Shown here: piece by piece, positions 4,390 to 57,523 of the stretch
How the letters are laid out: each line of letters opens with the position of its first letter
Numbering within the stretch: position 1 is the first letter of the stretch
Assembly (NCBI GenBank): GCA_963755455.1
Contig: CAVWJH010000004.1
Coordinates: forward strand, 204,948-268,947
DNA length: 64,000 nt
Reading direction: 5' to 3'
Origin: an uncultured Verrucomicrobiae bacterium
Lineage (GTDB): Bacteria > Verrucomicrobiota > Verrucomicrobiia > Limisphaerales > UBA11358
Notes under the pieces: generated by a model
Seen by the model: the letters and a program-made list of their open reading frames with translations, nothing else
Databases searched by the model: none
Told to the model about the DNA's origin: nothing
Translations under genes and position numbers: made by a program

Positions 4390-4668
4390 GACGCACGCGG
4401 CTTGGTCGTCCTCTCCTGATTTGCAGGATGACGTGAGGAGGCCCTGACTGAAAATCTGAAACCGGGGATTATAAGTTTTCCGCGCGAAATGAACGAAATC
4501 AGGCAGCATGGGCTGACCAGTCGGATTAACTGTAATTCTGCCAAAAAGAGATCAGTCGTTGTCTTTCAAACCAATCCGTTCGCGTGATTGGCGTGGTTTG
4601 CGGTTCAAAATTTGTGTCCATCTGTGGCTGACTTCATCCGGCCTGACGTTGAAGCCATGTAGTCTGCG

Positions 4669-8694: not shown

Positions 8695-11600
8695 TCAAAT
8701 TTCCACGTCCACCGTTTTCCGCGCCGATAAAAAATGCAGCCAGCAGTTCGTGACCGGGCGCAAATAAATTTTCGCCAGCGCGCTTGCGTAAAGTTTTAGC
8801 TGCGGTGCATAAATCCTTGTCTTGTCCGCCAAATCGTTTGAGCGAACCTCGTCCGTCTTGAAATCCACCAGCCAGATTTCATCCGGCAGCAGCACGGCCA
8901 AATCCGCCACGCCCTGCACGACAACGAATTCATCTTCCAGTTCCGGCGATGATTTTGTCCCGGTGATTTCCGACAATTCCTGCCGGACTGAACTTCGCCG
9001 TGAACGCCAGTTCGCGTCTCACGCTCGCCGCGTGTCGCCGGATTTTTTGCCCAGCATCCGAATTCCAAAACGCCGCCAGCGCGTTCAAATCCAAAACCGC
9101 GCGTTCGTCCGCCGACAAAAAATTTTCCCGCTCCAGCCGTTCCGCCCCGGCTTCAAGCGCCGCCAGTTCACCCGCATTTTCCAGCGCGATATGCTGGAGA
9201 AACTTGTGGTGCGCCGTGCCGGAATCCGCCGCGCTCAATTTCCGATTTTGCCCCGGTTTCGGGCGTGCGTCGCCCGCGAGCCATTTTTCCGAAAACTCAA
9301 TACTGAAAATTTGTTCCGCTTCGTCATCCAATTCTTCCGCCGCCTGCCGCCGCAATGCCGTGACCGACGACTTGGCCTTTCGTTCGGTCGCCGCGCCGAA
9401 GCCATATTCCCACGCTCAAAGTTTCCTGAAGCTTTTCGCAAAGTTTCATCGTCGAGCTCCGGCAGTTCCGTTTCTGTTTTCTGCTTTCCACTTTCCGCTT
9501 TTTCCGCCGCAAGTTCCGTGTCGTCCACAATCCGCCAGCGCAGATGCGGCAGTTCGCCTTGCGTTTCGCTTTGGCCTTTGGACTTTGAACTTCGGAGTTG
9601 GTTCGCAAACCACAAGCCCAGCCAGTCCGCGAAACTTTTCGCCGCCAGAATTTTTTGCGGCGTGATTGGCCGGTTTCGATGCAAAACTCCGTCCCATTTT
9701 TTCTCCGTGACGCTGGCGGTCAAAATCAGCTTGTCGCGCGCCCGCGTCATGCGCGACGTAAAGCAGCCGCAGTTCCTCGCCCGCGCAGTTCGCGGCGCTG
9801 CTGCCGTTGCGCGAGCCAGTGCGGCAGACTCGGATAACGCCCGCCCGCGTGCGGCGGTTTCACTTTCGGACAAAGCCCGAATTCCTCGTCAAAAATGATT
9901 TCGCCGCGCAGATCCTGCGTCGTTGAATTTTTTTGCAAGATCGGCGAGGGCGACGACTGGAAATTCCAAGCCCTTTGCTTTGATGAATGCTCATCAGCCG
10001 CACGGCATTTTCGTCCGCGACCGGCGAAACTTCCGGTTCAACTTCCGCCTCGCGCTGCGCCTCGATGAATTTCAAAAAACGGAACAGTCCCTGCCGCTGA
10101 AACTGGTCGAACTTTTGCGCGAGATTCAAAAACCGCTCGAATGTTCGCGCGCCCGCTGCGCGCCGCGCGGACGCGTCCGCAGCCAGTCGGCGTAAAGTGT
10201 TTCCGCCAGCATCGCTTCCAGGCATTGCGAGAGCGAGTATTGCTGCGCCAGTTTCCGCCAGCGCATGAAAACCGTTCGAGAAAATTTCCGGTTTTCGCGC
10301 GCGTGTCATTTTTAATTTTTAATTTTGACTTTTGAATTCGAGTTGAGCGCCGTCCAAAAATGTTCATCCCTTGCCGCCAGCCGGATTTCCGCCAGTTCGT
10401 CCAGCGAGCAGCCGACGAGCGGCGAGCGCAGCACCGCGATGCACGGCACATCCTGCAACGGATTGTCGAGCAGTTGCAGCAGGCTTAACAGATCGAGAAT
10501 TTCGCTGCCGTCGAAAAAACCGCCGCGCTCGACCACGCAGCGGCACGCCGGCCGCTCGAATTGTTTCGCAAAAATTTCCGCCTTGCCCGCCGGCGAACGC
10601 AGCAGCACCGCCACGTCGCGCCATTCGACTGCGCGGAAAATCTTTTGTTTCGTCGTCCCAAATTTCATGCTGTTCTGCGTTTTAGTTCTTTCAGTCGCGC
10701 CGCGAGCAGCCGCGCTTCCTTTTCCGATTCGTCCAAATCCGCCAATTCATTTGCGCCGGATTCATCTTCTGGGTCAACCTCGTCGTTGCGTCCGGCTTTG
10801 AGCCGCAAAAGCAGTTCCGTTCGCGGCGACGGATCTTTTGCCGCGCTGAAATCTTCGCGCGTTTCCGGCGAGCCGAATTTCAATTGTGCGTCCGCGTCAT
10901 AATTCACGCCGCCGATTTCCTCGCGCATGAGCGGCTGGAAAACGGAATTGACGAAATTCAAGCAGCGATTCGCGGCTGCGGAAATTTTCGGCAAGCGGAA
11001 TCGTCTGGCCGTTTTCGTTCGCGCCAGTTTTTTGCGTAGTCGCGGAAGATTTTCGGGTCGGCGAGCCGGAAACGGTAAATGCTCTGCTTCACGTCGCCGA
11101 CAAGGAAACGGTTCGCGTCCGCGCCGTCGCGGGAAAGCGCGGCGATGATTTTGTCCTGCGCGGCGTTGATGTCCTGATATTCGTCCACGAAAACGAAGCG
11201 TAATTTTTCGCGCCAGATTTCGGCGACGGCGGTTGGTTTGTTCGCGGAAAAATCCCAGAGCAGTTTCAGCGCGAACTGTTCGAGGTCGTGAAAATCCAGC
11301 ACGCCGTCGGCGCGTTTGCGCGTCGGAAAAATTTTCCGGCAAATTCCTGCGCCAGCCGCAGCAAAGTTTCCATGTGGCCGCGAACCCAGTTCCAATCTTC
11401 CGCGAGCGGATCGCTGCCGTTTTTGACCGGCGCGAGCGCGGCGAGAAAAGCGGCTTCGTCGAACAAATCTTCCAGCGGCTTGCGCAAAATGGTTTTGCGT
11501 TTGGCCGGCCAGTTGCCGTCGGCGGAAACGATTTGTTCCAGAACTTCCGCCGCAAGTTCGCGCGTGAAGTTTTTTTCAAGACGCGACAAAATGCCCGTCA

Positions 11601-12332
11601 ATTCAGCGGCTTTTTCATTTCCGCTTTTCAGGTTTTCCAGAACCGGCAGCCATTCGTCGCGCCAGTCTTCAATCGCGGCGAGCAGCCAGTTTTGCCATTC
11701 AATGGGTTCAGGCGCGGAGAATTTTTGGATTTGTTCCGCGAGCCAGCCGGCGGCGTCGGGGCGCGTTTGCGAATAATGGTGCAGCCGCAAAATGAGCGTG
11801 CGGATTTTTTCGTCGCGGCCGTTGCCGTGAATTTGGATCAAATTTTGGACGGCCGGCGAAAATTCATCTTCGCCTTCGTAATGCGAATTGAAATTGTTCG
11901 TCCAGCGTTTCGTCGGCGAGCTCGCGTCTTCGCCTTCGTCCAGAATGGCGAGCTGCGGGTCGAGGCCGAGTTCGTGAAAATGTTCGCGCACGAGCTTGAG
12001 GCAAAAACCGTGCAGCGTGCCGATGTGCGCGAGCGTCGAACAGCGCCAGTTGTTCGGCGCAATGAGAATCGTCCGGCGACGCGGCGGATTTTTCTTCCAG
12101 TCGCGCGGCGAAGACGCTGGCGCATTTCGGCGGCGGCGGCTTCGGTGAAGGTGACGATGAGCAATTCGTCGAGCGACGCGCGTTCGCGGTCGAGACAATC
12201 GAGGCAGCGGGCGACGAGCGTCTTGGTTTTGCCGGTGCCGGCACCGGCCATGACGAGGACGTTGCCGCGCGCGGCGACCGCCTGCCGTTGGGACGGCGTG
12301 AGCGAATCAGTTTTTTCTGGCGCGGATTCCAT
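8695..12332 (-). pseudogene. AddA-like UvrD-family helicase with a C-terminal PD-(D/E)XK nuclease, heavily disrupted
   Basis: At least seven consecutive minus-strand ORF fragments carry ordered motifs. These are VLVMAGAGTGKTKTLV (Walker A), FVDEYQDIN, LVGDVKQSIYRFR, VRLMSIHQSKGL, MTRARDKLILT, and the nuclease tail GVADLAVLL..WLVDFKTD. An AT-rich insert at about 10306-10335 carries two in-frame stops. Confidence 0.8.
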
Positions 12333-12339
12333 GCGTGCG

Positions 12340-12350
12340 GAAATTTTAGC
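12340..12350. repeat. 11-bp direct repeat GAAATTTTAGC, left of the DUF6884/GIY-YIG pair
   Basis: It matches 13535-13545 perfectly. Confidence 0.5.
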
Positions 12351-12380
12351 CACAGATGAACACAGATGAAACACAGATTT
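12348..12380. repeat. Repeat family D, half copy
   Basis: AGCCACAGATGAACACAGATGAAACACAGATTT, immediately upstream of the addA-like start. Another right-arm half (TGTGTCCATCTGTGGCTGA) lies at 4613-4631. Confidence 0.6.
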
Positions 12381-12485
12381 GTCGTGCTGGCTCAATCTCG
12401 TCGAAATCCGAAGGAGATTGCCGCCCAATTTTTCAGGGCAAACCATCTTGCCATCGCTTGCGTCGTTTGTTAGCACTAGCAAACC

Positions 12486-12914
12486 TTGAAAAAAGTAGTC
12501 CTGATTACCTGCGTTAAGAAAAAGTTGCCTCATAAAGCGAAGGCTGAACATTTATACATCAGTCCTCTTTTTAAGGGCAACTTGCGATATGCCAGAAGCC
12601 TAAAACCTGACAGCATCTTCATCCTTTCGGCGAAGCACGGGCTGCTCGAACTGGGCAGGGAAATTGAGCATTACAATTCCACGCTCAAGGATATGTCGGT
12701 TGTTCAGGTCAGAGCATGGGCTGACAATGTGCTTGAACAACTCAAACGACAAGCAGATTTACAAAATGACCATTTCATCTTTCTTGCTGGTGAAAAGTAT
12801 CGAAAATTTCTCTTGCCACATTTGAAATCTTTTGAAGTGCCATTTCAAGGAATGTCATTTGGCAAACAACTTCAATATCTTGCGAATCAAACGCATGAGC
12901 CAAATGTGCCATAA
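12486..12914 (+). CDS. DUF6884-like protein of unknown function
   Basis: TTG start. KKVVLITCVKKK...HLYISPLF...IFILSAKHGLL...IFLAGEKY...PFQGMSFGKQLQYL matches my recollection of the DUF6884 family. The gene is AT-rich relative to its flanks. Confidence 0.6.
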   Translation: MKKVVLITCVKKKLPHKAKAEHLYISPLFKGNLRYARSLKPDSIFILSAKHGLLELGREIEHYNSTLKDMSVVQVRAWADNVLEQLKRQADLQNDHFIFLAGEKYRKFLLPHLKSFEVPFQGMSFGKQLQYLANQTHEPNVP

Positions 12915-13536
12915 TCTACATCTTCTTTTTTCAGGACTCTCCCAATTTGCATTTCCCTTTGACGCAAATAGAATCCCCCGAAACGGGATTTATATTCTTT
13001 TTGAAAAGGGTGAGTTCGCTCACAAAACGGACAGGATTGTCCGAGTTGGGACTCACACCGGAAGCAACCAATTGCCATCACGATTGAAACAGCACTCTAT
13101 CAAGGAAAATAAGGATCGAAGTATTTTTCGGAAAAATATAGGCCGGGCAATTCTGAGCAAGGATCAAGATGCTTTTCTTGAACAGTGGGAAATTGACCTG
13201 ACTACAAGAAATGCCAGACAAAAGCATGGGGGGAAAATTGACCGGCGAAAGCTCGTGGAAACAGAGAAACGGGTTACAGAATACATCCGGCAGAATTTCC
13301 GTTTTGTCGCGTTCAGAGTTGATGATAAGTCACAGCGATTACACTGGGAGTCAAAAATAATTTCCACCGTTTCTCGATGTGATGAATGTCGCCCGTCACA
13401 AAATTGGCTTGGGTTACATTCACCCAAAAAGAAAATCCAAGAGAGTGGGCTTTGGCTTGTCAACGAGCTTTACACACAGCCTTTGTCTGAAAGTGATTGC
13501 GAGTTGTTGAAAATAGCCGTCTTGAGCACGGCATGA
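12895..13536 (+). CDS. GIY-YIG nuclease family protein
   Basis: NGIYILFEKGE...RIVRVGTHTG..LPSRLKQH...SIFRKNIGRAIL is a GIY-YIG core. The C-terminal CDECRPSQNWLGLHS..ESGLW region recurs in this family. An ATG at 12895 or 12904 overlaps the stop of the upstream gene (12912-12914). Confidence 0.75.
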   Translation: MSQMCHNLHLLFSGLSQFAFPFDANRIPRNGIYILFEKGEFAHKTDRIVRVGTHTGSNQLPSRLKQHSIKENKDRSIFRKNIGRAILSKDQDAFLEQWEIDLTTRNARQKHGGKIDRRKLVETEKRVTEYIRQNFRFVAFRVDDKSQRLHWESKIISTVSRCDECRPSQNWLGLHSPKKKIQESGLWLVNELYTQPLSESDCELLKIAVLSTA

Positions 13537-13545
13537 AATTTTAGC
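13535..13545. repeat. 11-bp direct repeat GAAATTTTAGC, right of the DUF6884/GIY-YIG pair
   Basis: It matches 12340-12350 perfectly and overlaps the GIY-YIG stop codon. Confidence 0.5.
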
Positions 13546-13589
13546 TTCTTCTTCAATGTTTTCATTTTGAATTCGATTGCAAATCGCTT

Positions 13590-14360
13590 ATGTCTCAAAA
13601 TCTTCGACTTAAAGACCAGCCGGTGAGCGAGCGTCCGCGCGAACGGCTCGTGGCGCGCGGGCCGGATGCGCTGACGCACGCGGAGTTGATCGCGATTCTG
13701 CTGCGGACGGGCTTGCAGGGCGCGAACGTCGTTCAAGTCGCGCAAAACATTTTGCAGAAGTTCGGCTCGTTGAACGCGCTGGCGCTGGCGACGGTGGACG
13801 AGTTGAAGCAGATTGCCGGCGTCGGCCCGGACAAGGCGGCGACGCTGGTGGCGGCGTTCGCGCTGGCGCGGCGGATGGAGCAGGAGCGGCGCGAGGAATC
13901 GCCGGTGCTGGACAATCCGGTGACGGTCGTGAACTTCATGCGCGAAGAGAACCGGCTGGAAAATGTGGAATCGTTTCTGGCGCTGCTGCTCAACGTGCGG
14001 AAAAAACTGATCCGCGTGGAGAAAATTTCCCACGGTTTGCTGGACACGATTTTAGTTCATCCGCGTGAAGTTTTTCGCGCGGCGATTGCGGCGAACGCGG
14101 CGGGAATTGTTTTGGTTCACAATCATCCGAGCGGCGACCCGACGCCGAGCGACGCGGACATCAAGGTGACGCGGGATTTGATCCGCGCCGGGCAGCTTTT
14201 GAAAATCGAGGTGGTGGATCACGTCATCATCGGCCGCGCGACGGCGGAGCGGGCGAAGGATTATTCGTCGTTGCGCGAGCTGGGATATTTTCATGCTGTG
14301 AAGGAACATCCGTTACACCGTGAATCGTTGGATTGTTGCGCCAACAAAGACTGGATTTAA
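13590..14360 (+). CDS. radC: RadC-family JAB-domain protein
   Basis: RPRERL...GPDALTHAELIAILLRTG, the helix-hairpin-helix ELKQIAGVGPDKA, and the JAMM motif LVHNHPSGDPTPSDAD. Confidence 0.85.
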   Translation: MSQNLRLKDQPVSERPRERLVARGPDALTHAELIAILLRTGLQGANVVQVAQNILQKFGSLNALALATVDELKQIAGVGPDKAATLVAAFALARRMEQERREESPVLDNPVTVVNFMREENRLENVESFLALLLNVRKKLIRVEKISHGLLDTILVHPREVFRAAIAANAAGIVLVHNHPSGDPTPSDADIKVTRDLIRAGQLLKIEVVDHVIIGRATAERAKDYSSLRELGYFHAVKEHPLHRESLDCCANKDWI

Positions 14361-14388: not shown

Positions 14389-15189
14389 ATGATTCACAAA
14401 ACAGCGATCATTCATCCGAAGGCGAAGCTGGACGCGACCGTCCAGGTCGGTGCGTATTCCGTGATTGATGAGGGCGTGGAAATCGGCGCGCATTGCGTCA
14501 TCGGGCCTCACACTTATTTCACGGGCAACACAAAAATCGGATCGCACAATCAATTCCACGCCGGCTGCGTCATCGGCGACGCGCCGCAGGACACCAAATA
14601 CAAGGGCGAGCCGACGCGCCTCCGCATCGGCGACCACAATGTTTTCCGCGAACATTTCACGGCGCACCGCTCAACCACGATGGACGGGGAGACGGTCATC
14701 GGCTCGCACAATTTTTTCATGGCCAGCTCGCACGTCGGTCACAACGCCGTCGTCGGCGACCACGTCATCCTGGTGAACGGCGCGCTGCTGGGCGGGCACG
14801 CGCGGTGTTTGACCGCGCGTTCATTTCCGGCAACTGCCTCGTGCATCAGTTTTGCAGCGTCGGCACGCTGGCGATGATGCAGGGCGGCGCGAGCGTCACC
14901 CAGGATTTGCCGCCGTTCACGACGGCGGCATACGGCGTCAACAAGCTGTGCGGGCTGAACATCGTGGGATTGCGGCGCGCGGGCTTCACGCCGGAGCAGC
15001 GGCTGGAATTGAAAAAAATCTACCACCTGATTTTCCGCCGCAAAAATCACTTGGCTGCGGCAATCGAAGATGTGCGGAAAAAATTCTCCAGCCATGAGGC
15101 GAAAGACCATCGTGGATTTCGTCGTCAGGTCAAAACGCGGCGTCTGCACGGGAACGACGCGTTCGATCACCCAGACCAAGGATGAATAG
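14389..15189 (+). pseudogene. lpxA: Acyl-ACP--UDP-GlcNAc O-acyltransferase LpxA; two frame breaks (about 14804 and about 15100), probably assembly indels
   Basis: MIHKTAIIHPKAKL followed by hexapeptide repeats in ORF 14320. It continues as VFDRAFISGNCLVHQFCSVGTLAMMQGGASVTQDLPPF in ORF 14493. The tail AKTIVDFVVRSKRGVC is in the third frame. Confidence 0.85.
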
Positions 15190-19518: not shown

Positions 19519-20325
19519 TTACCAGTCTTTCCAATCTACAACACTTTTAACCAAGTCTTGGAATTTTGCCGCGTTCAAAATATTTTCAAAAACCTCGAAC
19601 AAGTCATCTCGTTCAACGGTTTCAATGAAATTTTTGTTTTGGGAATCGAATTCGTTAATTTCTTCTATGCACTTTTTGAGTTCTTTACTGACGAAATTTC
19701 GGTCAAGCGGTTTTTCCGCCCCATCCAAAACACGAATGAATGATTGGATTATTTTTTGACAACCATCTTTGGCCGCTTTAGGTGGATAATCATCCCAAGT
19801 TGGAAACAAATCTTTCGCAAGCAATTCTGAAAAAGAAATTGCGGCGAGATATTTAGTGCGCTTCTGAATCGCTTCTTTTCGTTTTGCCAATTCAAGTTCA
19901 TTTTTTGCTGCATCTTCGGCAAGGACAGCCTCGCGCTCATTGTCCCAACGCCATTGCATTAGCGGTTGCTCCGAAAAATTCCATCCGCCATGCCATGTGC
20001 TATCAATTTTTGTATCCTCCGAAAGCACATCAATAACTCCAAGCAGCCGAAATTCTTTTGGGGGTGGCGATGAGACCCAAATGACTTCTGGCACGTTTTT
20101 CCAATTGTGGTGATTTTTTACAAGGATTTTTCGCACTGCGGGATGGTTTAATGGCGGCGGTTCTTTTGAAATCCAGTCAGAAACAGCAACAAGAGCTACC
20201 GGAATTTCTTTCAACTCTTTTCGTATAACACGACAAACACCTACGCGTCCGCCTTCCGGCGGCATTACAAATACAGTTCCAGCTTCTGGAAAATCTTCGA
20301 GCTTGTATTTTTTACGACGTGCCAT
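19519..20325 (-). CDS. Hypothetical protein in an AT-rich accessory islet
   Basis: Intact 268-aa ORF with no recognisable domain. It is visibly AT-richer than the flanking aminotransferase gene. Confidence 0.5.
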   Translation of the reverse strand: MARRKKYKLEDFPEAGTVFVMPPEGGRVGVCRVIRKELKEIPVALVAVSDWISKEPPPLNHPAVRKILVKNHHNWKNVPEVIWVSSPPPKEFRLLGVIDVLSEDTKIDSTWHGGWNFSEQPLMQWRWDNEREAVLAEDAAKNELELAKRKEAIQKRTKYLAAISFSELLAKDLFPTWDDYPPKAAKDGCQKIIQSFIRVLDGAEKPLDRNFVSKELKKCIEEINEFDSQNKNFIETVERDDLFEVFENILNAAKFQDLVKSVVDWKDW

Positions 20326-21044: not shown

Positions 21045-22424
21045 ATGAAATCCGTCGCAATCATCGGCGCTGGCATCACGGGACTGACCGCCGCGTTTTA
21101 TCTGAAACGCAAAGGTGTGCCAGTCACGGTTTATGAGGCGGGCCGGCGGGCAGGTGGCGTAATTCAATCCGTCCGCAAGGACGGTTTTCTGGCCGAGTCC
21201 GGGCCGAACACAATTCTCGAAACGTCGCCGAAGATCGCGCAGCTTGTCCGCGACGCCGGGCTGGAATCGCGCAAGCTCGCCACCAATCCGAAAGCCGAGG
21301 CGCGCTACGTCGTGCGCGGCGGAAAGCCCGTCGCCATGCCATCATCACAGCTTGGCATTTTCACGTCGGAACTTTTGAGCGCGAAGGCAAAGTTTGCGCT
21401 GGTTCGCGAACCGTTCGTGCCGCCGCGCCGCGATGGAAATGAGGAGAGTGTCGCGGAATTCGTAACGCGCCGGCTGAACCGGGAATTTCTGGATCGCATG
21501 GTGGACGCGCTGGTGGCTGGAATTTACGCGGGCGATCCGCACAGACTTTCCGTCCAGCACGCGCTGCCGAGGTTGAAGGCGCTGGAGGACAAATACGGTT
21601 CGCTCATCAAAGGCCAGATTCGTGGCGCGCGCGAGCGCAAGAAATCTGGCGAAGTGGCGCGCGACCGGGCGCCGAAATTTTCCTTCGACGAAGGCTTGCA
21701 GGTTTTGCCGGACACGCTGGCGGCGCTGCTTGGCGACTCGTTGAAATTGAATTCGCCGGTGACAAAGCTCGCGCAGACGGGCGACGGCTGGCGAGTTTCA
21801 ACTTCGAATGGCGAAGCGGAATTTGGCGCGGTGATTTATTGCGGCACGGCCTACAAACTTGCGGAATTAAAAATCGAATCGCAAAAGGCGTTGGATTTTT
21901 CCGTGTTTTCCGAAATCCGTTATCCGCCGGTGGCGAGCGTGGTGCTGGGTTTTCGCCGCGAAGACGTGGCTCATTCGTGCGAAGGATTCGGGATGTTGAT
22001 TCCGGGAATTGAAGGCTTCAAAATTCTCGGCACGATATTTTCGTCGTCGCTGTTTCCAAATCGCGCGCCTGCCGGCCACGTTTTGCTTTCGATTTACGTC
22101 GGCGGCGAGCGTCAGCCGGAACTGGCGTCGTTGCCGGCGGACGAACTGGTGAAACTGGTCTGCGAAGATTTGCGCGTGCTGCTGGGTGTGCGCGGCCAGC
22201 CGGTTTTCACGCATCACCATTTCTGGCCGCGCGCGATTCCGCAATACAATCTCGGCTACGGCAAATTCAAGGACTTGCTCAACGAAATTGAATCAAAGGC
22301 GCGCGGATTGTTTTTTGCCGGAAGTTTTCGCGACGGCGTTTCGCTGGGCGATTCGATTGTATCTGGCGCGAACATTGCGGAGCGCGTGGGGAAACTTTTT
22401 TTAGCCACAGATGTTCACAGATGA
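21045..22424 (+). CDS. hemY: Protoporphyrinogen/coproporphyrinogen oxidase (HemY type, FAD-dependent)
   Basis: MKSVAIIGAGITGLTAAFYL is the dinucleotide-binding motif, and HemY-like sequence runs throughout. It is followed by hemH. Confidence 0.85.
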   Translation: MKSVAIIGAGITGLTAAFYLKRKGVPVTVYEAGRRAGGVIQSVRKDGFLAESGPNTILETSPKIAQLVRDAGLESRKLATNPKAEARYVVRGGKPVAMPSSQLGIFTSELLSAKAKFALVREPFVPPRRDGNEESVAEFVTRRLNREFLDRMVDALVAGIYAGDPHRLSVQHALPRLKALEDKYGSLIKGQIRGARERKKSGEVARDRAPKFSFDEGLQVLPDTLAALLGDSLKLNSPVTKLAQTGDGWRVSTSNGEAEFGAVIYCGTAYKLAELKIESQKALDFSVFSEIRYPPVASVVLGFRREDVAHSCEGFGMLIPGIEGFKILGTIFSSSLFPNRAPAGHVLLSIYVGGERQPELASLPADELVKLVCEDLRVLLGVRGQPVFTHHHFWPRAIPQYNLGYGKFKDLLNEIESKARGLFFAGSFRDGVSLGDSIVSGANIAERVGKLFLATDVHR

Positions 22425-22486
22425 AACGATGATAAACCGGAAAAGAGTTTTTGAATCTGTGTCCATCTGTGTTTATCTGTGGCTGA
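22401..22486. repeat. Palindromic repeat family D (GCCACAGATG...CATCTGTGGC) between hemY and hemH
   Basis: TTAGCCACAGATGTTCACAGATGAAACG ... GAATCTGTGTCCATCTGTGTTTATCTGTGGCTGAA. It encodes the last residues of HemY (ATDVHR). Confidence 0.8.
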
Positions 22487-22493
22487 ATTTTTT

Positions 22494-29281: not shown

Positions 29282-30115
29282 TTAATCCTTCTTCGCGCCC
29301 GGCAATGCCTTCAGATTGGATGAAGTCAAAACCTGCATCTGGCGGATGGCGATTTGGTTCAGCCGTTTCAGCCGTTCACCTTGCGGCAACCCCATGTGGA
29401 TGAATTCCGCATTCATCCCTTCCATGTTCGCGAGCACCAGCAACTGGTCGATGCTCGCATAATCACGGACATTGCCTTCCAACTTGGGATTGGCGTCACG
29501 CCACTGCTTCGCCGTCTGGCCGAAGAGCGCGACGTTGAGCAAATCCGCCTCGGTCGCGTAGGTGATGGCTGTCTGGGTCGGCGTGATTTCCGGCGGCATC
29601 AGGTGCGCCTTCACCGCACCGGTGTGGATGCGGTAATTCAACTTCGACAACGTGCGGTTGAGATTCCACGCGAGCGAGAGCCGACGGTTTTCGTCGTCCT
29701 TCAATCGCTGGAATTCTTTGATGAGGTAGATTTTGAATTCCGCGCTGATCCACATGCCGAACTCGAAGGCGATGTCTTTGTGCGCGAAAGTGCCGCCATA
29801 CCGGCCAGCCGTGGCTTTGAGTCCGATGGCATTGGTCTTTTCCACCCAATCCTTGACGCTGATTTTGTAGCTGTTCAGCCCGGCCTGACTTTTAATTATG
29901 GCGAATTCGCCATAATTAAAACGTGGGTTGTGAACGGATTCCCAAACACCGAGGAATTCCACGGTATTCCGATTGCGCAGCCAGTCGGAAATGAAAAAGT
30001 CGCCGTCTTTGGCCTTGAGTATGTCCGTCAGCGAAATGAAATCCTCGTCTTTGTAAGACAAGACGGCGATGGCCGTGCCTTGCACTTCAATGACGGTTTT
30101 CTTTGGTTTGCTCAT
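29282..30115 (-). CDS. KilA-N domain-containing protein
   Basis: ISLTDILKAK...ISDWLRNRNTVEFLGVWE..NPRFNYGEF...GRYGGTFAHKDIAFEFGMWISAEFKIYLIKEFQRLK matches the KilA-N family as I recall it. AT-richer than the flanks. Confidence 0.7.
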   Translation of the reverse strand: MSKPKKTVIEVQGTAIAVLSYKDEDFISLTDILKAKDGDFFISDWLRNRNTVEFLGVWESVHNPRFNYGEFAIIKSQAGLNSYKISVKDWVEKTNAIGLKATAGRYGGTFAHKDIAFEFGMWISAEFKIYLIKEFQRLKDDENRRLSLAWNLNRTLSKLNYRIHTGAVKAHLMPPEITPTQTAITYATEADLLNVALFGQTAKQWRDANPKLEGNVRDYASIDQLLVLANMEGMNAEFIHMGLPQGERLKRLNQIAIRQMQVLTSSNLKALPGAKKD

Positions 30116-30126
30116 GGCAAAATTTT

Positions 30127-30174
30127 TTGGGCAGGTTGACAGAGTGCTTGGCAATGAAAATAGGATTAGTCTGG
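30127..30174. repeat. Direct repeat copy 2: a diverged duplicate of the aminotransferase 5' end, upstream of KilA-N
   Basis: TTGGGCAGGTTGACAGAGTGCTTGGCAATGAAAATAGGATTAGTCTGG. The minus strand reads QTNPIFIAKHSVNLPK. About 36 of 48 nt match copy 1. Confidence 0.75.
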
Positions 30175-30177
30175 AAA

Positions 30178-31017
30178 TTAGATGCTCGTGAAATAATCTT
30201 TTTGAACTTTAATTTCTTCGACAACTTTCTGCTTCACCTCAACTCCAATTCCCAATTCTTTCAGCTTTTGAACCAGTTCTTCTCCGTCAATTAAATCAAT
30301 CGGCATAGCACCGTCTCTTTGAGCTTCAGCCCGAGCGTCGCGAGAAAATCTTCCGGTAGTTATCAGCAATCCCTTATCAGCCCGACCGTCCATCGCACCT
30401 CGAAAATCTCGCACTGTAGATGGAGGAACAGTTCCTTTATATCTTTTGCACTGAAAACTTACTCGAAAAGTTAATAATCCTCCGATTCGCAAAACTCCTT
30501 TTCCATCAATGCCGCCATCGCCAGATTTGCCGGTTACTTCAACTTGGATAAATCCAGATTCGCGCAATAGTAATTGGCAAAGCCGTTCAAAACTTTCAGC
30601 CGGCATTTCTTTCACAACTGAAAGTAATTCGTCCTGCCAACTATCACGTTCTGGCTCAATTTCAAATTCAGTTTGTTCGACTTTTAATTTTCGCTCTGCC
30701 TTGTCTTGATTTCTGACCGCACGTTTAACTTCCTCAATATTGACTGGATATTTTTTGCGGCCTTCAAGTGTCAGCGTCCAGACTCCACGCGCAGAATTTT
30801 CGAGAAGCCCGAAGCGCTTCATGTAATTTCGCGCCCAAGCCAAACGGTAACTCAATTTCGTTGTGCTGCCGCGATGGATTTCAGCGATGTCCTTCTCGGT
30901 GAGTTTCAAAATCGAAGCTACGGCATCTTCTTGTTCTGAAACAGAAGCAGAGCCACCCAATTGATTCACCGCCTGCAAAAGCGGATTGATCAATTCATCG
31001 TATTTTGGAACAGGCAT
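30178..31017 (-). CDS. mrr: Mrr-family type IV restriction endonuclease
   Basis: Mrr_N-like N-terminus (MPVPKYDELINPLLQAV...YRLAWARNYMKRFGLLE). Catalytic domain FERLCQLLLRESGF..VEVTGKSGDGGIDG...FQCKRY...VRDFRGAM...GLLITTGRFS. Confidence 0.85.
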   Translation of the reverse strand: MPVPKYDELINPLLQAVNQLGGSASVSEQEDAVASILKLTEKDIAEIHRGSTTKLSYRLAWARNYMKRFGLLENSARGVWTLTLEGRKKYPVNIEEVKRAVRNQDKAERKLKVEQTEFEIEPERDSWQDELLSVVKEMPAESFERLCQLLLRESGFIQVEVTGKSGDGGIDGKGVLRIGGLLTFRVSFQCKRYKGTVPPSTVRDFRGAMDGRADKGLLITTGRFSRDARAEAQRDGAMPIDLIDGEELVQKLKELGIGVEVKQKVVEEIKVQKDYFTSI

Positions 31018-36262: not shown

Positions 36263-36277
36263 TACGCCGATATTTTT

Positions 36278-36345
36278 GCCACAGAGTCACAGAGAACACA
36301 GGGAAAAATGTCTTGTTTTGCTCCGCGTCTCTGTGTCTCTGTGGC
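36278..36345. repeat. Palindromic repeat family D variant (CACAGAG type)
   Basis: GCCACAGAGTCACAGAGAACACAGGG ... GTCTCTGTGTCTCTGTGGC, between the rluE-like gene and the HAD-Nudix gene. Confidence 0.75.
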
Positions 36346-36394
36346 TGATTTTCCTTTCTGTTGCCTTGAAGCTATTCGCGGTTAAACTGCTGGC

Positions 36395-41872: not shown

Positions 41873-42250
41873 ATGATTCTCGGCACCGGCATAGACATCA
41901 TCGAAGTGGCGCGCATCCGCGCGTCGCTGGAAAAGTTTGGCGAACGGTTCGGGCAGCGGGTCTTGCTGCCGGACGAGACCGCCTATTGCCTCTCGCACAA
42001 GGATTCCGCGCCATTCGTCGCCGCGCGGTTTGCGGCCAAGGAGGCGGTCTCGAAGGCGTTCGGCACGGGCATCGGCGCGCAACTGGGCTGGCAGGACATC
42101 GAGATTTGCAAAAAGGAATCCGGCGAGCCGTTCGTGGTCTTGCACGGCAAGGGGAAAAAACTTTTTGAATCGCGCGGCGCGAAGGGTTTGCTCATCAGCT
42201 TGAGCCACACGGAACATTACGCGGCGGCCACGGCGGTTTTGGAAGGATGA
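41873..42250 (+). CDS. acpS: Holo-[acyl-carrier-protein] synthase
   Basis: MILGTGIDIIEVARI...AARFAAKEAVSKAFGTG....SLSHTEHYAAATAVLE. The classic pdxJ-acpS adjacency is present. Confidence 0.9.
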   Translation: MILGTGIDIIEVARIRASLEKFGERFGQRVLLPDETAYCLSHKDSAPFVAARFAAKEAVSKAFGTGIGAQLGWQDIEICKKESGEPFVVLHGKGKKLFESRGAKGLLISLSHTEHYAAATAVLEG

Positions 42251-42643
42251 TTATTTCTCCAGCGCCGCGAGCATTGAATCCAGTTGCTTCCGTTCGATGT
42301 CCGTCGCCGTTCCCGCGACGATGTGTCCGGCGATGCTCCGCAAAATGAAAGACTTGTTGGCCGCAAGTTGCAACTCTTCGATTAAATCGCGCGCGATGGC
42401 GGCAAAAGTGTTTCCGTTGTAAAAACAAAATGGCGCGAGCCGGTGACATTGCAGGCAGACTTGAAGCGCGTCGGTCAAGGAAAGTTCCGCAAATTGATTT
42501 TTCTCCCAGAGAATTTTTGCAGGTTCGTGGCCGTCAGAAGTTGGCTTGTGCAGCGCATTTTTCTGGCTGCAAAGGCCGCGATTGATTTCAGTGACAATTT
42601 TCCAGTCAAACGGGGCGAGCCAGGGTTTGACAAGGCGCGACAT
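42251..42643 (-). CDS. Hypothetical protein with a degenerate Fic/Doc-like motif
   Basis: 130 aa. CHRLAPFCFYNGNTFAAIARDLIEEL followed by ...IAGHIVAGTAT...LDSMLAAL resembles the helix layout around the Doc motif HxFxDxNKRTA. The catalytic His and the K/R are replaced. Confidence 0.35.
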   Translation of the reverse strand: MSRLVKPWLAPFDWKIVTEINRGLCSQKNALHKPTSDGHEPAKILWEKNQFAELSLTDALQVCLQCHRLAPFCFYNGNTFAAIARDLIEELQLAANKSFILRSIAGHIVAGTATDIERKQLDSMLAALEK

Positions 42644-42649
42644 GGAAGA

Positions 42650-42826
42650 TTAATGCGCGGCGGATTTTCTCAAGCCGGCGTTGATGCGCTGCAATGTCCC
42701 GACGCCCTCGCTTTTGAGGTAGCCTTTGCCGGTGCGCGCGAGAACCGGCTCGGCGGCAAAACGGTCTTGAATGCGCAGCGCATCCTTCATGATTCGCTTC
42801 AACCGCTTCTGTTGAGCTTCCGTCAT
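42650..42826 (-). CDS. Unlisted 58-aa ORF, possible antitoxin-like partner
   Basis: My own translation is MTEAQQKRLKRIMKDALRIQDRFAAEPVLARTGKGYLKSEGVGTLQRINAGLRKSAAH. Its stop lies 6 bp upstream of the 130-aa gene start. It is below the 60-aa cutoff of the ORF track. Confidence 0.3.
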   Translation of the reverse strand: MTEAQQKRLKRIMKDALRIQDRFAAEPVLARTGKGYLKSEGVGTLQRINAGLRKSAAH

Positions 42827-42895
42827 GGTTCAAAGATAACTAATCATTTCCAAAATCGCAAATCGAAAAGCTTGCGTTGAAGATTCTCGGATTCG

Positions 42896-43624
42896 TCAAA
42901 TTTCGTTGGATTGTTTGTTTAAGATTGTTTCAATATTGCTGTGAATTTTCTTGTTGCACGCCTCAAATAACTTTTGAATTTCATTATACAACCATCCTCC
43001 AGCCTTTCCGGTTCGGTTTGCTTGTTCATCTGTGACGCAGAATGTCAAAAACGATTTTGGGTGCATCAACTGATGCCTTAATTCAAATGTCTCACAAAGT
43101 GAGGAAAATCCATCCTGGTTAAAATCGGTTGGACATTGGAAATTATTAACTTGAGCAAATAGTCTGAAAGTTTGCTTAAAATTATCCTTAAAAACTAGAT
43201 GCTTTGACCTTTCTCCAATTTGTAAATTCGCCTTACCCTCAAGAAGAAATTTATTTTCATCGTCATTTAATTCAAATTTATTGAACCCTGCTGAAGCATG
43301 GGTCAATTCTTTCAAACAAAAAACAATTCCATCAACGGCTGCGGCAAACGCTCGTATTGCTGTCCTTCGCCAAAATTGATTATTAAAATTCTTGTGTAGT
43401 TCGACACTTACTTCTTTCAAATCAGACATCAATACGACTTGTAATAGTTTTGCATTTTGTATCCTTTTTAGAAAAATTTTCGCGTCTTCTTGGACATCTT
43501 TTGCTAATGCAGCGATGGCTTTTTCACGAACCGACGAATCATCACTAAATACGCCAAGTTCTCTGAATTGTTCTCTTAATTCAGCAATTTTTTCCTGTGT
43601 TTCGATTTCATTCATAACAACCAA
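42896..43624 (-). CDS. Hypothetical protein with an Rx4H (HEPN-like) motif; passenger of the IS1595-family transposase
   Basis: Very AT-rich 242-aa ORF that begins 5 bp after the transposase stop. The C-terminal FELRHQLMHP fits the HEPN R-x4-6-H signature. Otherwise unrecognised. Confidence 0.45.
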   Translation of the reverse strand: MVVMNEIETQEKIAELREQFRELGVFSDDSSVREKAIAALAKDVQEDAKIFLKRIQNAKLLQVVLMSDLKEVSVELHKNFNNQFWRRTAIRAFAAAVDGIVFCLKELTHASAGFNKFELNDDENKFLLEGKANLQIGERSKHLVFKDNFKQTFRLFAQVNNFQCPTDFNQDGFSSLCETFELRHQLMHPKSFLTFCVTDEQANRTGKAGGWLYNEIQKLFEACNKKIHSNIETILNKQSNEI

Positions 43625-43629
43625 TGTGC

Positions 43630-44586
43630 TTATCCCGTTGGCTCCCGTCCAATCATTTTCTCGAAACCGACCGGGGCTTTGTGAGCAGCCAAGCCCAATA
43701 ACGTTTGGAATGCTGCCATCGGGGTCTTGCGGCGGTTGAAGCGAAAGACAAATTCATCGAGATAGTTTTGTAAATACTTCGGGTCAACTCCATGGTGCGT
43801 GCCGTTGAGCCACGTCTTGAGATTGCCGAAAGCGCGGTGAATATGCAGCGCATGAGTCGCGATCGGCTGCAATGCGTGGCGGTAGTCGGCCAAAGCGGTT
43901 TTGGAATAGCCTTTCCAACCATCCGTATAAATTTCACTGCCCGGCTCCACATGGGTCGTAAGAAAATGGCGAATCGAAAGGGCGTCTGCCCGTTGCGTCA
44001 CCGCCAGCCGCAGCCGCCCAGCTTTCTCCAAACGGCCTCCCCGCTTGTCGGTAAACGCCACCACTTCTACTGCGCCAAAGACCAGCGTGCTCTTTTCATC
44101 CTTGGTAACGCCACGGCCGGTCTTGCCGCTGACAGGCCCGCCAATAATGACCTCATCAGCTTCCACACGCCCGCTGAGTAGCGCCCGCTTTTCATTCACC
44201 ATGCTGCGTCGCAGCCGGTGGAGCAAATACCAAGCAGTCTTATAGCTGCAGCCCATCTGCCGTTGTAGTTGGGTGCCGCTCATGCCTGGGGTATGTGTGG
44301 CTACCAAGTAAGCGGCCCAAAACCACTCGCGGAGCGAAAAGTGTGTGCCGTGAAGGAGGGTTCCGGCCGTAACGGAAGTTTGCTGACCACATTCGGAGCA
44401 TTCGTAAACATACCGCCGAGCTTTGACCCAATACTTCCTGCCGGAGCATCGTGGACAAGCAAAGCCAGCGGGCCAACGACTTTGCCCCAGATATTCAAAA
44501 CAAGCCGCTTCCTCTGAAAATTGCTCACGAAACTCTTTCAAAGTTGTTGGAAACTTCAGCTTGTCCATCAACCAAACTCGCGCCAA
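43630..44586 (-). CDS. IS1595-family (ISXO2-like) transposase
   Basis: N-terminal zinc ribbon (RWPAGFACPRCSGRKYW...YECSECGQQTSVTAGT), then VEADEVIIGG....TDGWKGY and the C-terminal HRAFGNLKTWLNGTHHGVDPKYLQNYLDEFVFRFNRR. Confidence 0.85.
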   Translation of the reverse strand: MARVWLMDKLKFPTTLKEFREQFSEEAACFEYLGQSRWPAGFACPRCSGRKYWVKARRYVYECSECGQQTSVTAGTLLHGTHFSLREWFWAAYLVATHTPGMSGTQLQRQMGCSYKTAWYLLHRLRRSMVNEKRALLSGRVEADEVIIGGPVSGKTGRGVTKDEKSTLVFGAVEVVAFTDKRGGRLEKAGRLRLAVTQRADALSIRHFLTTHVEPGSEIYTDGWKGYSKTALADYRHALQPIATHALHIHRAFGNLKTWLNGTHHGVDPKYLQNYLDEFVFRFNRRKTPMAAFQTLLGLAAHKAPVGFEKMIGREPTG

Positions 44587-44726
44587 ATACTACGGGAGTC
44601 AACGGGATAAGCATAACAACCAAATACCTTTTTCAAATCCGCATTCAAGACTAGAGTGACGATTAAGTTAATCGTTTCGGCTGCTTTCTCCTTTTTCCCG
44701 CGCCGTTTTTCCGGCACACTCCGCGC

Positions 44727-56503: not shown

Positions 56504-57436
56504 TCAATCCAGCCGCCCGCCCTGTTTCAGCGGATGTCCGGCTAAAAATTCCTGCGCGCCCATGCGCCGTCCGCCTTCGCGCTGCAATTCCAGAATCCGC
56601 AGCGCGTTTTTCCCGCAGGCGACAACAATTCCATTTTTGTCCGCCGACAAGACCGTGCCGGGCTGGCCATTATCTCCGGCGACTTCCGCTTTCCAGATTT
56701 TCAGCAATTGCAACTTTGATTCAGTTTTCAAAAATGTGAACGCGCCCGGCCACGGCGTGAACGCACGCAGACGGTTCAAGATTTTCTCCGCCGGCTCGCT
56801 CCAGTCAATCCTGCCGTCCTCCCGTTTTATCTTCGCCGCGTAGCTCGCGCCCTCGGCAGGCTGCGGCTTTGGCGGGATTTTCCCGGCGACGTAATCTGGA
56901 ATTGTCTCAACCAGCAATTCCGCGCCGAGTTGCGCCAGACGGTCGTGGAGCGTTTGCGAGTTGTCTTCGGGCAAAATCGGTGTGCGCGCCTGTGAAATGA
57001 TTTCGCCGGTGTCCAAGCCCGCGTCCATTTTCATGATCGTCACGCCGGTTTCGGTTTCGCCGTTGAGGATTGCGGACTGGATCGGCGCCGCGCCGCGATA
57101 TTTCGGCAGCAGCGACGTATGGACGTTCACGCAGCCAAACTTCGGCAAATCCAGAATCGCTTGCGGCAAAATCTGTCCGTAAGCAACGACGACAATCAAA
57201 TCCGGCTGCAACCCGCGCAGTTCGGAGATGAATTTTTCGTCGCGTGCTTTCACGGGCTGCACAACCGGCAGATTCAATTTCTCCGCCAGAATTTTCACCG
57301 GCGAGAATTGCAATTTAAGATCGCGGCCTCTGGGTTTGTCCGGCTGCGTGACGACGGCAGCGACGGAAAATGTTCCCGCCAGCTTTTCCAGACTGGCGCA
57401 GGACAGTTCCGCCGTGCCCATGAAAACAATCTTCAT
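56504..57436 (-). CDS. fmt: Methionyl-tRNA formyltransferase
   Basis: MKIVFMGTAE...VVTQPDKPRGR........VVVAYGQILP......GCVNVHTSLLPKYRGAAPIQ.AI..G...TGVTIM.MD.G.DTG. Confidence 0.9.
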   Translation of the reverse strand: MKIVFMGTAELSCASLEKLAGTFSVAAVVTQPDKPRGRDLKLQFSPVKILAEKLNLPVVQPVKARDEKFISELRGLQPDLIVVVAYGQILPQAILDLPKFGCVNVHTSLLPKYRGAAPIQSAILNGETETGVTIMKMDAGLDTGEIISQARTPILPEDNSQTLHDRLAQLGAELLVETIPDYVAGKIPPKPQPAEGASYAAKIKREDGRIDWSEPAEKILNRLRAFTPWPGAFTFLKTESKLQLLKIWKAEVAGDNGQPGTVLSADKNGIVVACGKNALRILELQREGGRRMGAQEFLAGHPLKQGGRLD

Positions 57437-57461
57437 TGATGATTTGCGATTTACGATTGAT
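57437..57461 (-). repeat. AAATCGT-heptamer motif directly upstream of the fmt ATG
   Basis: The minus strand reads ATCAATCGTAAATCGCAAATCATCA, followed by the ATG at 57436. An inverted partner (CGTAAATCATAAACCGCAAATC) lies at about 57491-57512. Confidence 0.65.
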
Positions 57462-57523
57462 GATTTTTGCCGCCGCAAAGACCGGCAAAGCGTAAATCAT
57501 AAACCGCAAATCTTAAATCCAAT

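Follow-up and report, generated by a model that had tools for sequence, protein, structure and literature searches.

The DNA examined here is a 64,000-nucleotide (nt) stretch of contig CAVWJH010000004.1 from an uncultured Verrucomicrobiae bacterium (GenBank assembly GCA_963755455.1), which we call the window. Coordinates are positions within it unless they follow an L-number, L-numbers denote loci in other genomes and viral records, and P-numbers denote homologous proteins. Our subject is a pair of overlapping genes, here termed gene A and gene B, that lies between a decayed addA-like helicase-nuclease gene and radC, as had been recognized in an original prediction made from the letters and open reading frames (ORFs) alone. 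The two genes are co-oriented, and gene A, which starts with TTG, encodes 142 amino acids (aa). Gene B has in-frame ATG codons at 12895 and 12904, giving the predicted overlap of 20 or 11 nt with gene A. We take the overlap to be 20 nt and protein B to be 213 aa long, because both the PDC-M57B profile (see below) and an alignment of 25 homologues start at the methionine encoded at 12895 (MSxICH...). From the start of gene A to the stop of gene B the cassette measures 1051 nt, in agreement with the 1.05 kb first estimated.

The cassette is AT-rich, although less starkly than a comparison of 37% with 67% GC in the adjacent addA-like gene had implied, these two figures being local extremes only. 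Between the flanking start codons (12334-13589), GC content is 42.8%, against a window mean of 55.4% (standard deviation of 3.6% for 1.2-kb windows), and the extremes of 200-nt windows are 0.375 and 0.70. GC content at third codon positions is 0.43 in the cassette versus 0.77 in radC. The leader 5' of gene A shows DNA-level conservation in those relatives whose cassette is oriented as in the window and is presumably a promoter or regulatory region; a promoter and terminator scan of 12200-13700, including sigma-70-type promoters, returned nothing informative.

A known candidate module

Both proteins match a catalogued candidate defense system end to end. In PADLOC-DB v2, residues 1-136 of protein A align with positions 1-136 of the 138-position PDC-M57A profile (E = 4.6e-60), and protein B, aligned from the methionine at 12895, covers positions 1-207 of the 211 in PDC-M57B (E = 5.5e-97). 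The gene order, A then B, adjacent and on the same strand, is that of the PDC-M57 cassette (FAM_03160>>FAM_00294). Payne et al. (bioRxiv 10.1101/2024.01.29.577857) obtained the PDC systems, 145 single- or multigene candidates, as genes lying inside BREX, DISARM, and type I restriction-modification (R-M) loci; in their cassette table PDC-M57 is CAS_00183, and its count is 46. PDC-M57 is not mentioned in the main text of any of the literature searched. The block is a further copy of this catalogued, uncharacterized candidate module; it is not the undescribed system that had been proposed, as PDC-M57 models match both proteins and Pfam families exist for both.

Protein A was correctly assigned at the outset to DUF6884, an uncharacterized family (Pfam PF21818; E = 2.5e-43, 147.9 bits against a cutoff of 30), and NCBIfam holds no family for it. 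DUF6884 proteins are distant kin of Escherichia coli YaaA, a DNA-binding DUF328 protein with the "cantaloupe" fold, and share the conserved motifs CxxxK and LSAxxG (PMC11701544). Protein A has both motifs intact (C9-V-K-K-K13 and L47-S-A-K-H-G52), and neither varies among 29 homologues or among five viral homologues. The Bacillus subtilis member of the family, YfjM, is enriched on DNA baits containing abasic sites or ribonucleotides and has been modeled with a base flipped into the motif pocket (PMC11701544). In the AlphaFold model of a homologue, the natural A-B fusion P0047, the DUF6884 domain has E. coli YaaA (5caj_A) as its top PDB match (probability of 0.99, but E = 0.011 and a template modeling score of 0.20 to 0.27 over 120 columns). 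Protein A itself scores 13.6 bits against DUF328 (PF03883), far under the threshold of 29.6, and matches profiles of DpdC, another DUF328 protein, weakly (E = 0.02). We predict that A is a YaaA-like binder of duplex DNA that flips a base into a pocket lined by CxxxK and LSAxxG.

Protein B had been called a clear GIY-YIG nuclease. Direct searches do not make it a clear one: B scores 11.5 bits against GIY-YIG (PF01541; cutoff, 22.6) and 14.1 bits against DUF123 (cutoff, 25). Nothing above threshold was found in NCBIfam, in PHROGs, or in the Pfam copy searched directly, which does not contain PF26468 (GIY_YIG_3), the family to which homologues of B (60 to 98% identity) are assigned in precomputed annotation. 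We place B in the GIY-YIG superfamily because of this assignment of its homologues, the subthreshold clan matches (DUF123 in 22 of 25 family members; PF01541 in 10 of 25, with residues 31-107 aligned to profile positions 3-61), and the fitting motifs. The residues invariant among 25 sequences follow the GIY-YIG order: N30-G31-I-Y33, R50-V-G52, N58-x-L60, R63-x3-H67, E152, and N190. The second motif reads R50-V-G52, so the tyrosine of YIG is not kept, and E152 and N190 are candidate catalytic residues by position only. An AlphaFold2 (AF2) model of B (predicted local distance difference test of 83.9; predicted template modeling score [pTM] of 0.83) has a beta-hairpin bearing both motifs, followed by helices and then by a third strand and a helix carrying E152. 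Residues C5, H9, C162, and C165 are also invariant and may bind metal. B is thus probably a divergent nuclease of the GIY-YIG superfamily, its activity being predicted from motifs.

Features of the cassette and its flanks
Feature	Position	Strand	Basis or remark
Gene A, DUF6884 = PDC-M57A	12486..12914	+	Pfam PF21818, PADLOC profile, motifs
Gene B, divergent GIY-YIG superfamily = PDC-M57B = GIY_YIG_3	12895..13536	+	PADLOC profile, Pfam family of homologues, motifs, AF2 model
Leader 5' of gene A (presumed promoter or regulatory region)	12351..12485	+	By-eye alignment of window, L001, L169, and L089
Left 11-mer, GAAATTTTAGC	12340..12350	+	Terminus of dispersed host repeat
Right 11-mer, GAAATTTTAGC	13535..13545	+	Begins within the TGA stop of gene B; 3' end of cassette
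Low-divergence tract relative to L001	12244..13700		Nucleotide differences, dS
Flank, outside module: addA/UvrD-PDDEXK helicase-nuclease pseudogene	8698..12332	-	Indels relative to the L001 orthologue
Flank, outside module: radC (UPF0758_N, HhH, and RadC JAB domains)	13590..14297	+	Pfam

Pairing, fusion, and spread

A profile of B was run against one genome per species (185,579 species), and neighborhoods were taken from the best 80 loci (58 to 81% identity). Relatives of B occur in 439 of these genomes, in both Bacteria and Archaea. The best 80 loci span Verrucomicrobiota, Chloroflexota, Bacteroidota, Desulfobacterota, and Acidobacteriota and also include Betaproteobacteria, Actinomycetota, bacteria of the candidate phyla radiation (CPR), DPANN archaea, Methanosarcinales (Methanosarcina), and Thermoplasmatota. 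At 71 of these loci, gene B has a co-oriented gene A homologue immediately 5' of it, the ends of the two alignments being -16 to +23 nt apart. The remaining nine include L154, where B is fused to a divergent DUF6884 domain; L111, with a divergent DUF6884 gene upstream; and L156, where the upstream ORF resembles a type II restriction endonuclease (E = 8.7e-15) and has a weak EVE match. No third gene is conserved: the 145 ORFs directly flanking the pair match 188 Pfam families, none of which appears in more than three loci.

The two families are also joined in single proteins. In a library clustered at 50% identity, the B profile matches 1,759 clusters at E <= 1e-3, and many of their representatives are 450 to 470 aa long with the B domain in the middle. 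DUF6884 lies directly N-terminal to B in nine of ten longer B-family proteins scanned; five of these nine fusions add a C-terminal DUF7662, and in two, DUF6884 is itself preceded by Pif1-helicase domains. Three-domain proteins of the form DUF6884-GIY_YIG_3-DUF7662 are frequent, DUF7662 being a 72-residue domain of unknown function; the longer proteins of the family include P0300, P0327, P0294, P0305, P0291, P0336, and P0368.

A and B together are self-contained and are often made as a single polypeptide; we take them to act as one unit because they are translationally coupled here and fused in many other organisms. The original prediction stood to fall if the two families were not adjacent in other genomes. 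They decisively are, and the view of a genuine conserved pair is upheld by the 71 loci, the many phyla, and the fusions.

History of the addA-radC site

Relatives with a recognizable radC (orthologues were found at 65 to 97% identity) show how this site has changed. Eight metagenome contigs, L001 to L008, have an intact addA followed by A and B, with A and B 97% identical to ours at the amino acid level and RadC 96.6% identical (L001 to L004). The order in L169 (RadC, 92%) is that of the window, with A at 85% and B at 78%. L089, in which the locus has no radC, carries addA, A, and B (B, 81%) and then a different downstream gene. In L170 and L171, two independent assemblies (RadC, 69%), the pair again fills this gap, with its orientation reversed with respect to radC and addA alike. 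Other relatives hold other sequences next to radC. L019 (RadC, 91%) has a 581-bp AT-rich segment with a different ORF of 147 aa (L019 3552-3995) from a small orphan family; L053 (RadC, 95% over the first 99 aa) has tyrS upstream of radC; L009 (RadC, 85%) has a radC-proximal leader like that of L053 in the 134 nt available; and L010 (RadC, 84%) has yet another gene upstream of radC. No cassette-free addA-radC junction was seen among 80 radC loci.

The gap between addA and radC is therefore a variable site, with alternative cargo in L019 and an inverted cassette in L170 and L171, and the pair is not part of a conserved core at this locus; membership in such a core would have counted against the original prediction. 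The orphan family of the L019 ORF comprises 36 proteins, some from CPR bacteria. The ORF itself has no Pfam, PADLOC, or NCBIfam match and contains a D...E-x-K motif that, by eye only, might be read as PD-(D/E)xK.

Sequence divergence separates two phases in the history of the cassette. Relative to L001, about 24 differences fall within the 1.45-kb low-divergence tract (about 1.6%), compared with 8 to 30 per 100 nt outside it, and the tract reaches into the 5' ends of both neighboring genes, by about 90 nt in addA and about 100 nt in radC. The number of synonymous substitutions per synonymous site (dS) between the window and L001 is 0.033 for A and 0.030 for B versus 0.31 for radC. Compared with L169, by contrast, dS is 0.25 for A, 0.45 for B, and 0.43 for radC. 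Because the values for A and B in this comparison resemble that of radC, we read the cassette as having resided at the addA-radC site since before the lineages of the window and L169 split. Recently, one allele passed between the lineages of the window and L001, exchanged by homologous recombination in the flanking genes. The ratio of nonsynonymous to synonymous substitution (dN/dS) of the cassette is 0.24 to 0.34 in the comparisons with L001 and L169, and that of gene A is about 0.27; both genes are under purifying selection, and the proteins of the cassette evolve faster than RadC. The view of the block as a small horizontally acquired insert thus survives in part: the cassette is accessory and laterally exchanged, but its dS relative to L169 does not fit a recent one-off arrival.

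The exact 11-bp direct repeat that brackets the block, GAAATTTTAGC, occurs exactly twice in the window, as had been noted. It is no scar left by an insertion. TTTTAGCCACAGATGnnCACAGATGAAAC, the dispersed host repeat that overlaps the left copy, lies at 12344-12372 in this case; its other occurrences in the window are two hairpin pairs (22399-22489 and 36273-36351) and one single arm (4610-4634). In L001, L169, and L089, which have the cassette in the same orientation, the left site reads G(A/G)AAACTTTAGC-CACAGATGG and not GAAATTTTAGC, the counterpart of the 11-mer being GAAAACTTTAGC. The right copy belongs to the cassette, because AAATTTTAG stands 3' of the gene B stop not only in the window, L001, L169, and L089 but also in L170, where the cassette is inverted with respect to addA and radC; this right-hand motif was not found after gene B in other phyla. 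The perfect repeat is a coincidence, specific to the window, of a host-repeat terminus with the 3' end of the cassette, and the accompanying caveat that the 11-mer might simply be part of a repeat terminus holds for the left copy.

That the block is a small transposable or site-specifically integrated element flanked by an 11-bp target-site duplication is accordingly a reading to which we give almost no credence. In its favor are the exact repeat at both edges of an AT-rich block and the rarity of such a match, about 0.2% of shuffles giving 11 nt or more in common between the boundary zones, each 100 nt long. Against it, the window contains 94 exact 11-mer direct pairs spaced 800 to 1600 nt apart, and the block has no transposase, no integrase or recombinase ORF, and no terminal inverted repeat. 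The host repeat at the left edge, the different left site in three relatives, and the right copy that travels with the inverted cassette also speak against a target-site duplication, which we rejected. The cassette did not arrive by transposition.

The dispersed intergenic repeat is built of CACAGATG units arranged as inverted-repeat hairpins or as single arms. A second repeat family, with ATTTACG/TAAATCG units, occurs at 37465, 41846, and 57433-57518 and also 5' of the cassette in L170.

The same data bear on another possibility, that the cassette is a selfish, free-standing element resembling a homing endonuclease, in which B would cut addA-radC alleles lacking the cassette, repair would then copy it in together with some of its flanks, and A would supply specificity or a maturase-like helper function. 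GIY-YIG is a classic homing-endonuclease fold, several Limisphaerales lineages carry the cassette at the same intergenic site, the low-divergence tract extends into both flanks much as a co-conversion tract would, and neither an integrase nor a transposase accompanies it. The tract, however, is accounted for just as well by ordinary homologous recombination, and the cassette is as old as radC by comparison with L169, indicating vertical residence. No empty allele was encountered among the 80 radC loci, there is no intron or intein context, and the unrelated flanks found across phyla leave no conserved target evident. B is also absent from 50,697 phage records and rare on plasmids, where it has only seven distant matches (29 to 35% identity), all haloarchaeal. 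We consider a homing element improbable.

The addA-like flank is a pseudogene in the window: relative to the intact 1205-aa orthologue of L001 it has 34 indels, and tblastn recovers it as pieces in three frames. Twenty-six of the indels are single-base insertions, a bias that is unusual for natural gene decay; seven of the 34 lie in homopolymers, and none occurs in the adjacent 2 kb (12334-14296). Sequencing error was considered as a source of the frameshifts and explains them poorly, given that the 34 indels are crowded into the 3.6 kb of addA, that the following 2 kb is free of them, and that homopolymers account for only 7. Beyond this interval, a +1 insertion at 14297 alters the C terminus of RadC (256 aa, against 236 aa in relatives), and an lpxA-like acyltransferase gene has a -1/+1 pair at 14803 and 15102 that, 300 nt apart, puts about 100 codons out of frame.

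The window has other AT-rich islands. One, at 29282-31017 (-), encodes a KilA-N protein that matches PADLOC PDC-S22 (E = 7e-129), beside a type IV restriction enzyme with Mrr_N and Mrr_cat domains (mREase_IV, E = 7.5e-29), and so holds another defense-type pair. The most AT-rich, at 42100-44600 (41% GC), contains an IS1595-family transposase gene (43630-44586, -) and two ORFs without a family match (42251-42643 and 42896-43624, -). A further AT-rich ORF, at 19519-20325 (-), encodes 268 aa whose C-terminal part matches DUF5713 (E = 1.3e-6); it matches nothing in the defense databases.

A proposed sensor and nuclease

What might such a pair do? We propose that PDC-M57 is a widespread, self-contained two-gene module in which A, a base-flipping sensor, directs the nuclease B against foreign DNA, and we judge this proposal to stand about an even chance of being correct. 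A would bind duplex DNA, flip a base into its CxxxK/LSAxxG pocket, and recognize a noncanonical base in incoming DNA; B would then cleave the DNA so flagged. Such a module would resemble a modular modification- or lesion-dependent restriction endonuclease. Enzymes of that kind combine repair-type or reader domains with PD-DExK, HNH, PLD, or GIY-YIG nucleases, and the architecture here, whether as a pair or as fusions, is likewise a putative sensor and nuclease with no methyltransferase in the cassette. We also count in its favor the intact DUF6884 motifs, the YaaA match, the action of DpdC on a base in DNA, the lesion baits of YfjM, the invariant GIY-YIG-type residues of B, and the accessory behavior of the cassette (other cargo in L019, inversion in L170 and L171, low dS relative to L001, and absence of B from the phage records). 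The data show the family identities, the conserved pairing, the fusions, the purifying selection, the recombination tract, and the variability of the locus; we infer the contact between A and B, the base flipping, the nuclease activity of B, the trigger, and the role in defense.

Several observations weigh against this proposal. The model of the natural fusion P0047 has a pTM of 0.59 and no confident interface between A and B. The invariant cysteine and lysine of A suggest an enzyme and not a passive reader, and the lesion binding of YfjM would fit repair equally well. B retrieved no solved GIY-YIG enzyme, having no PDB match by sequence profile or by fold (Foldseek); with PF01541 also below threshold, its nuclease activity is argued from motifs. 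The immediate neighbors of the pair across phyla are mostly housekeeping genes. Finally, PDC-M57 is listed among the untested anti-phage candidates (Payne et al., bioRxiv 10.1101/2024.01.29.577857).

A minority of neighbors are of defense type: methylase, specificity, and HsdR subunits of type I R-M systems, BrxL, the MADS protein mad2, and PIN. Among the 145 flanking ORFs, matches to defense families number three for MTase_I, two for specificity subunits, four for mad2, and one for BrxL, counts for which no background rate was computed. The neighborhood evidence for defense from the best 80 loci is weak; stronger evidence is that Payne et al. found the pair inside BREX, DISARM, and type I R-M loci.

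Housekeeping neighbors would suit an accessory DNA repair module, in which A recognizes a lesion in host DNA, such as an abasic site, a ribonucleotide, or a damaged base, and B nicks beside it, an alternative form of excision much like the incisions made by UvrC, UVDE, or endonuclease V. GIY-YIG is the fold of the 3'-incision domain of UvrC. YfjM favors abasic and RNA-base baits, YaaA binds DNA and is linked to oxidative stress, fusions to Pif1 helicase exist, and the pair here lies between two repair-associated genes, addA and radC. That adjacency, however, is confined to one clade. The spread of the family is very patchy (439 of the 185,579 genomes), identity between archaeal and bacterial members near 60% implies frequent transfer, the composition is foreign, and the locus is variable, with alternative cargo and inversion; the embedding of the pair in BREX, DISARM, and R-M loci also counts against repair. 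Repair is a possible role for PDC-M57, but in our view an unlikely one.

A further alternative follows from the invariant Cys/Lys pocket, which suggests catalysis. A might mark host bases as self, and B might cut unmarked DNA, in the manner of an R-M system. The superfamily of A includes DpdC, a DUF328 protein of the Dpd system that converts 2'-deoxy-preQ0 (dPreQ0) to dADG (2'-deoxy-7-amido-7-deazaguanosine) within DNA, and the coupled order of A before B would fit a "protect first" arrangement. However, A has only 142 aa and no cofactor-binding domain; DpdC-type chemistry requires preQ0 in DNA, and no dpdA, dpdB, or que genes lie beside the pair. In addition, Rosebush phage, which has a DUF6884 homologue, contains 28% dPreQ0 and negligible dADG in its DNA. 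An R-M-like pair is, on this evidence, very improbable.

Viral homologues of A offer a lead as to what a DUF6884 sensor might recognize. A has homologues in 159 phage records, and in three unrelated virus groups the gene is a neighbor of genes for 7-deazaguanine modification. Fusobacterium phage phiFN37 (L172 3501-3935; 44% identical to A) has the order ParB-like, TGT, DUF6884, preQ transporter. In Mycobacterium Rosebushvirus (L174 5980-6450), the DUF6884 gene gp8 is beside gp1-6 (ParB, DpdA, QueC, QueD, QueE, and FolE). In Halorubrum virus HRTV-29 (genus Dpdavirus; L177 7001-7402), the DUF6884 gene gp32 overlaps the DpdA gene gp33. The viral DUF6884 proteins retain C9, K13, LSA, G52, and Y63. 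We regard the deazaguanine link as a lead and not as a conclusion. It is not general: when the 4 to 7 kb around DUF6884 genes of Bradyrhizobium, Caulobacter, Myxococcus, Halobacterium, and Streptomyces phages was scanned with a hidden Markov model of DpdA derived from three viral sequences, no DpdA appeared, and Microbacterium phage Naby (17 kb) has DUF6884 without any DpdA. Together with the negligible dADG of Rosebush DNA, these phages also argue against a simple DpdC-like role. The linkage of viral DUF6884 with DpdA is not discussed in the literature searched, in which only an archaeal-virus survey (bioRxiv 2021.05.26.445827) contains both of the terms DpdA and YaaA.

Taken further, this lead would make DUF6884 an unrecognized class of flipped-base sensor within the YaaA/DpdC superfamily and PDC-M57 a modification-dependent system that restricts phage DNA containing 7-deazaguanine or, more broadly, DNA with hypermodified purines or abasic sites. 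This more specific idea is a long shot. If it is true, the same base-binding fold would serve viruses that make or handle deazaguanine DNA and hosts that find and cut such DNA.

As a catalogue entry the copy in the window adds little, and it is the comparative picture that makes the family worth testing: identity of about 60% over widely separated phyla, near-constant pairing, fusions, purifying selection, hotspot behavior, and the viral link to 7-deazaguanine. If PDC-M57 is a restriction system, a YaaA-type domain would join the known sensors of noncanonical DNA, and the large DUF6884/YaaA superfamily, DpdC aside, would for the first time have a defined molecular role. A repair module, on the other hand, would represent a new lesion-incision pathway. 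The family is widespread, compact, and experimentally tractable.

Comparison with known systems

The closest relation is PDC-M57 itself. Here, both proteins match the two profiles end to end, and the cassette has the same two genes in the same order. The copy in the window differs in lying between addA and radC and not inside a BREX, DISARM, or R-M locus. There is no difference in kind, and the catalogue entry is a prediction without a described mechanism.

For protein A, the points of reference are E. coli YaaA (PDB 5CAJ), the top PDB match of the DUF6884 domain of P0047, and B. subtilis YfjM, itself a DUF6884 protein; A probably belongs with them in the "cantaloupe" alpha/beta fold family. 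YaaA and YfjM differ in being stand-alone chromosomal proteins that have no nuclease partner and are associated with oxidative stress or the binding of lesions. DpdC (PF03883) shares a superfamily with DUF6884 and acts on a base inside DNA, but A is half its size, and no dpdA or dpdB lies beside the pair; nor do TGT or ParB genes, as would be seen in a Dpd system, adjoin the pair in the window or its relatives.

The GIY-YIG fold is known from the N-terminal domain of UvrC, the homing endonucleases I-TevI and Seg, and the restriction enzymes Eco29kI and Hpy188I. B has the motif order of these enzymes, GIY...xxG...R-x3-H...E...N, and a beta-beta-alpha-alpha-beta-alpha core in its model. It differs from them in its replaced YIG tyrosine (RVG), an insertion of about 45 residues ahead of strand 3, an additional helix at the N terminus, and a C-terminal region that bears the invariant C/H/C/C set.

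As a whole, the module can be compared with the type IV modification-dependent restriction endonucleases, such as END (an iEndoIII sensor with a PLD nuclease) and the fusions of SRA, EVE, or YTH domains to nucleases. The YaaA/DUF328-superfamily domain of A is not among the sensors of these enzymes in the sources consulted, and its invariant Cys/Lys suggests that A may be catalytic. What the two have in common is a base sensor (in our case a predicted one) with a nuclease and no methyltransferase; PDC-M57 has these parts encoded apart in some genomes and fused in others.

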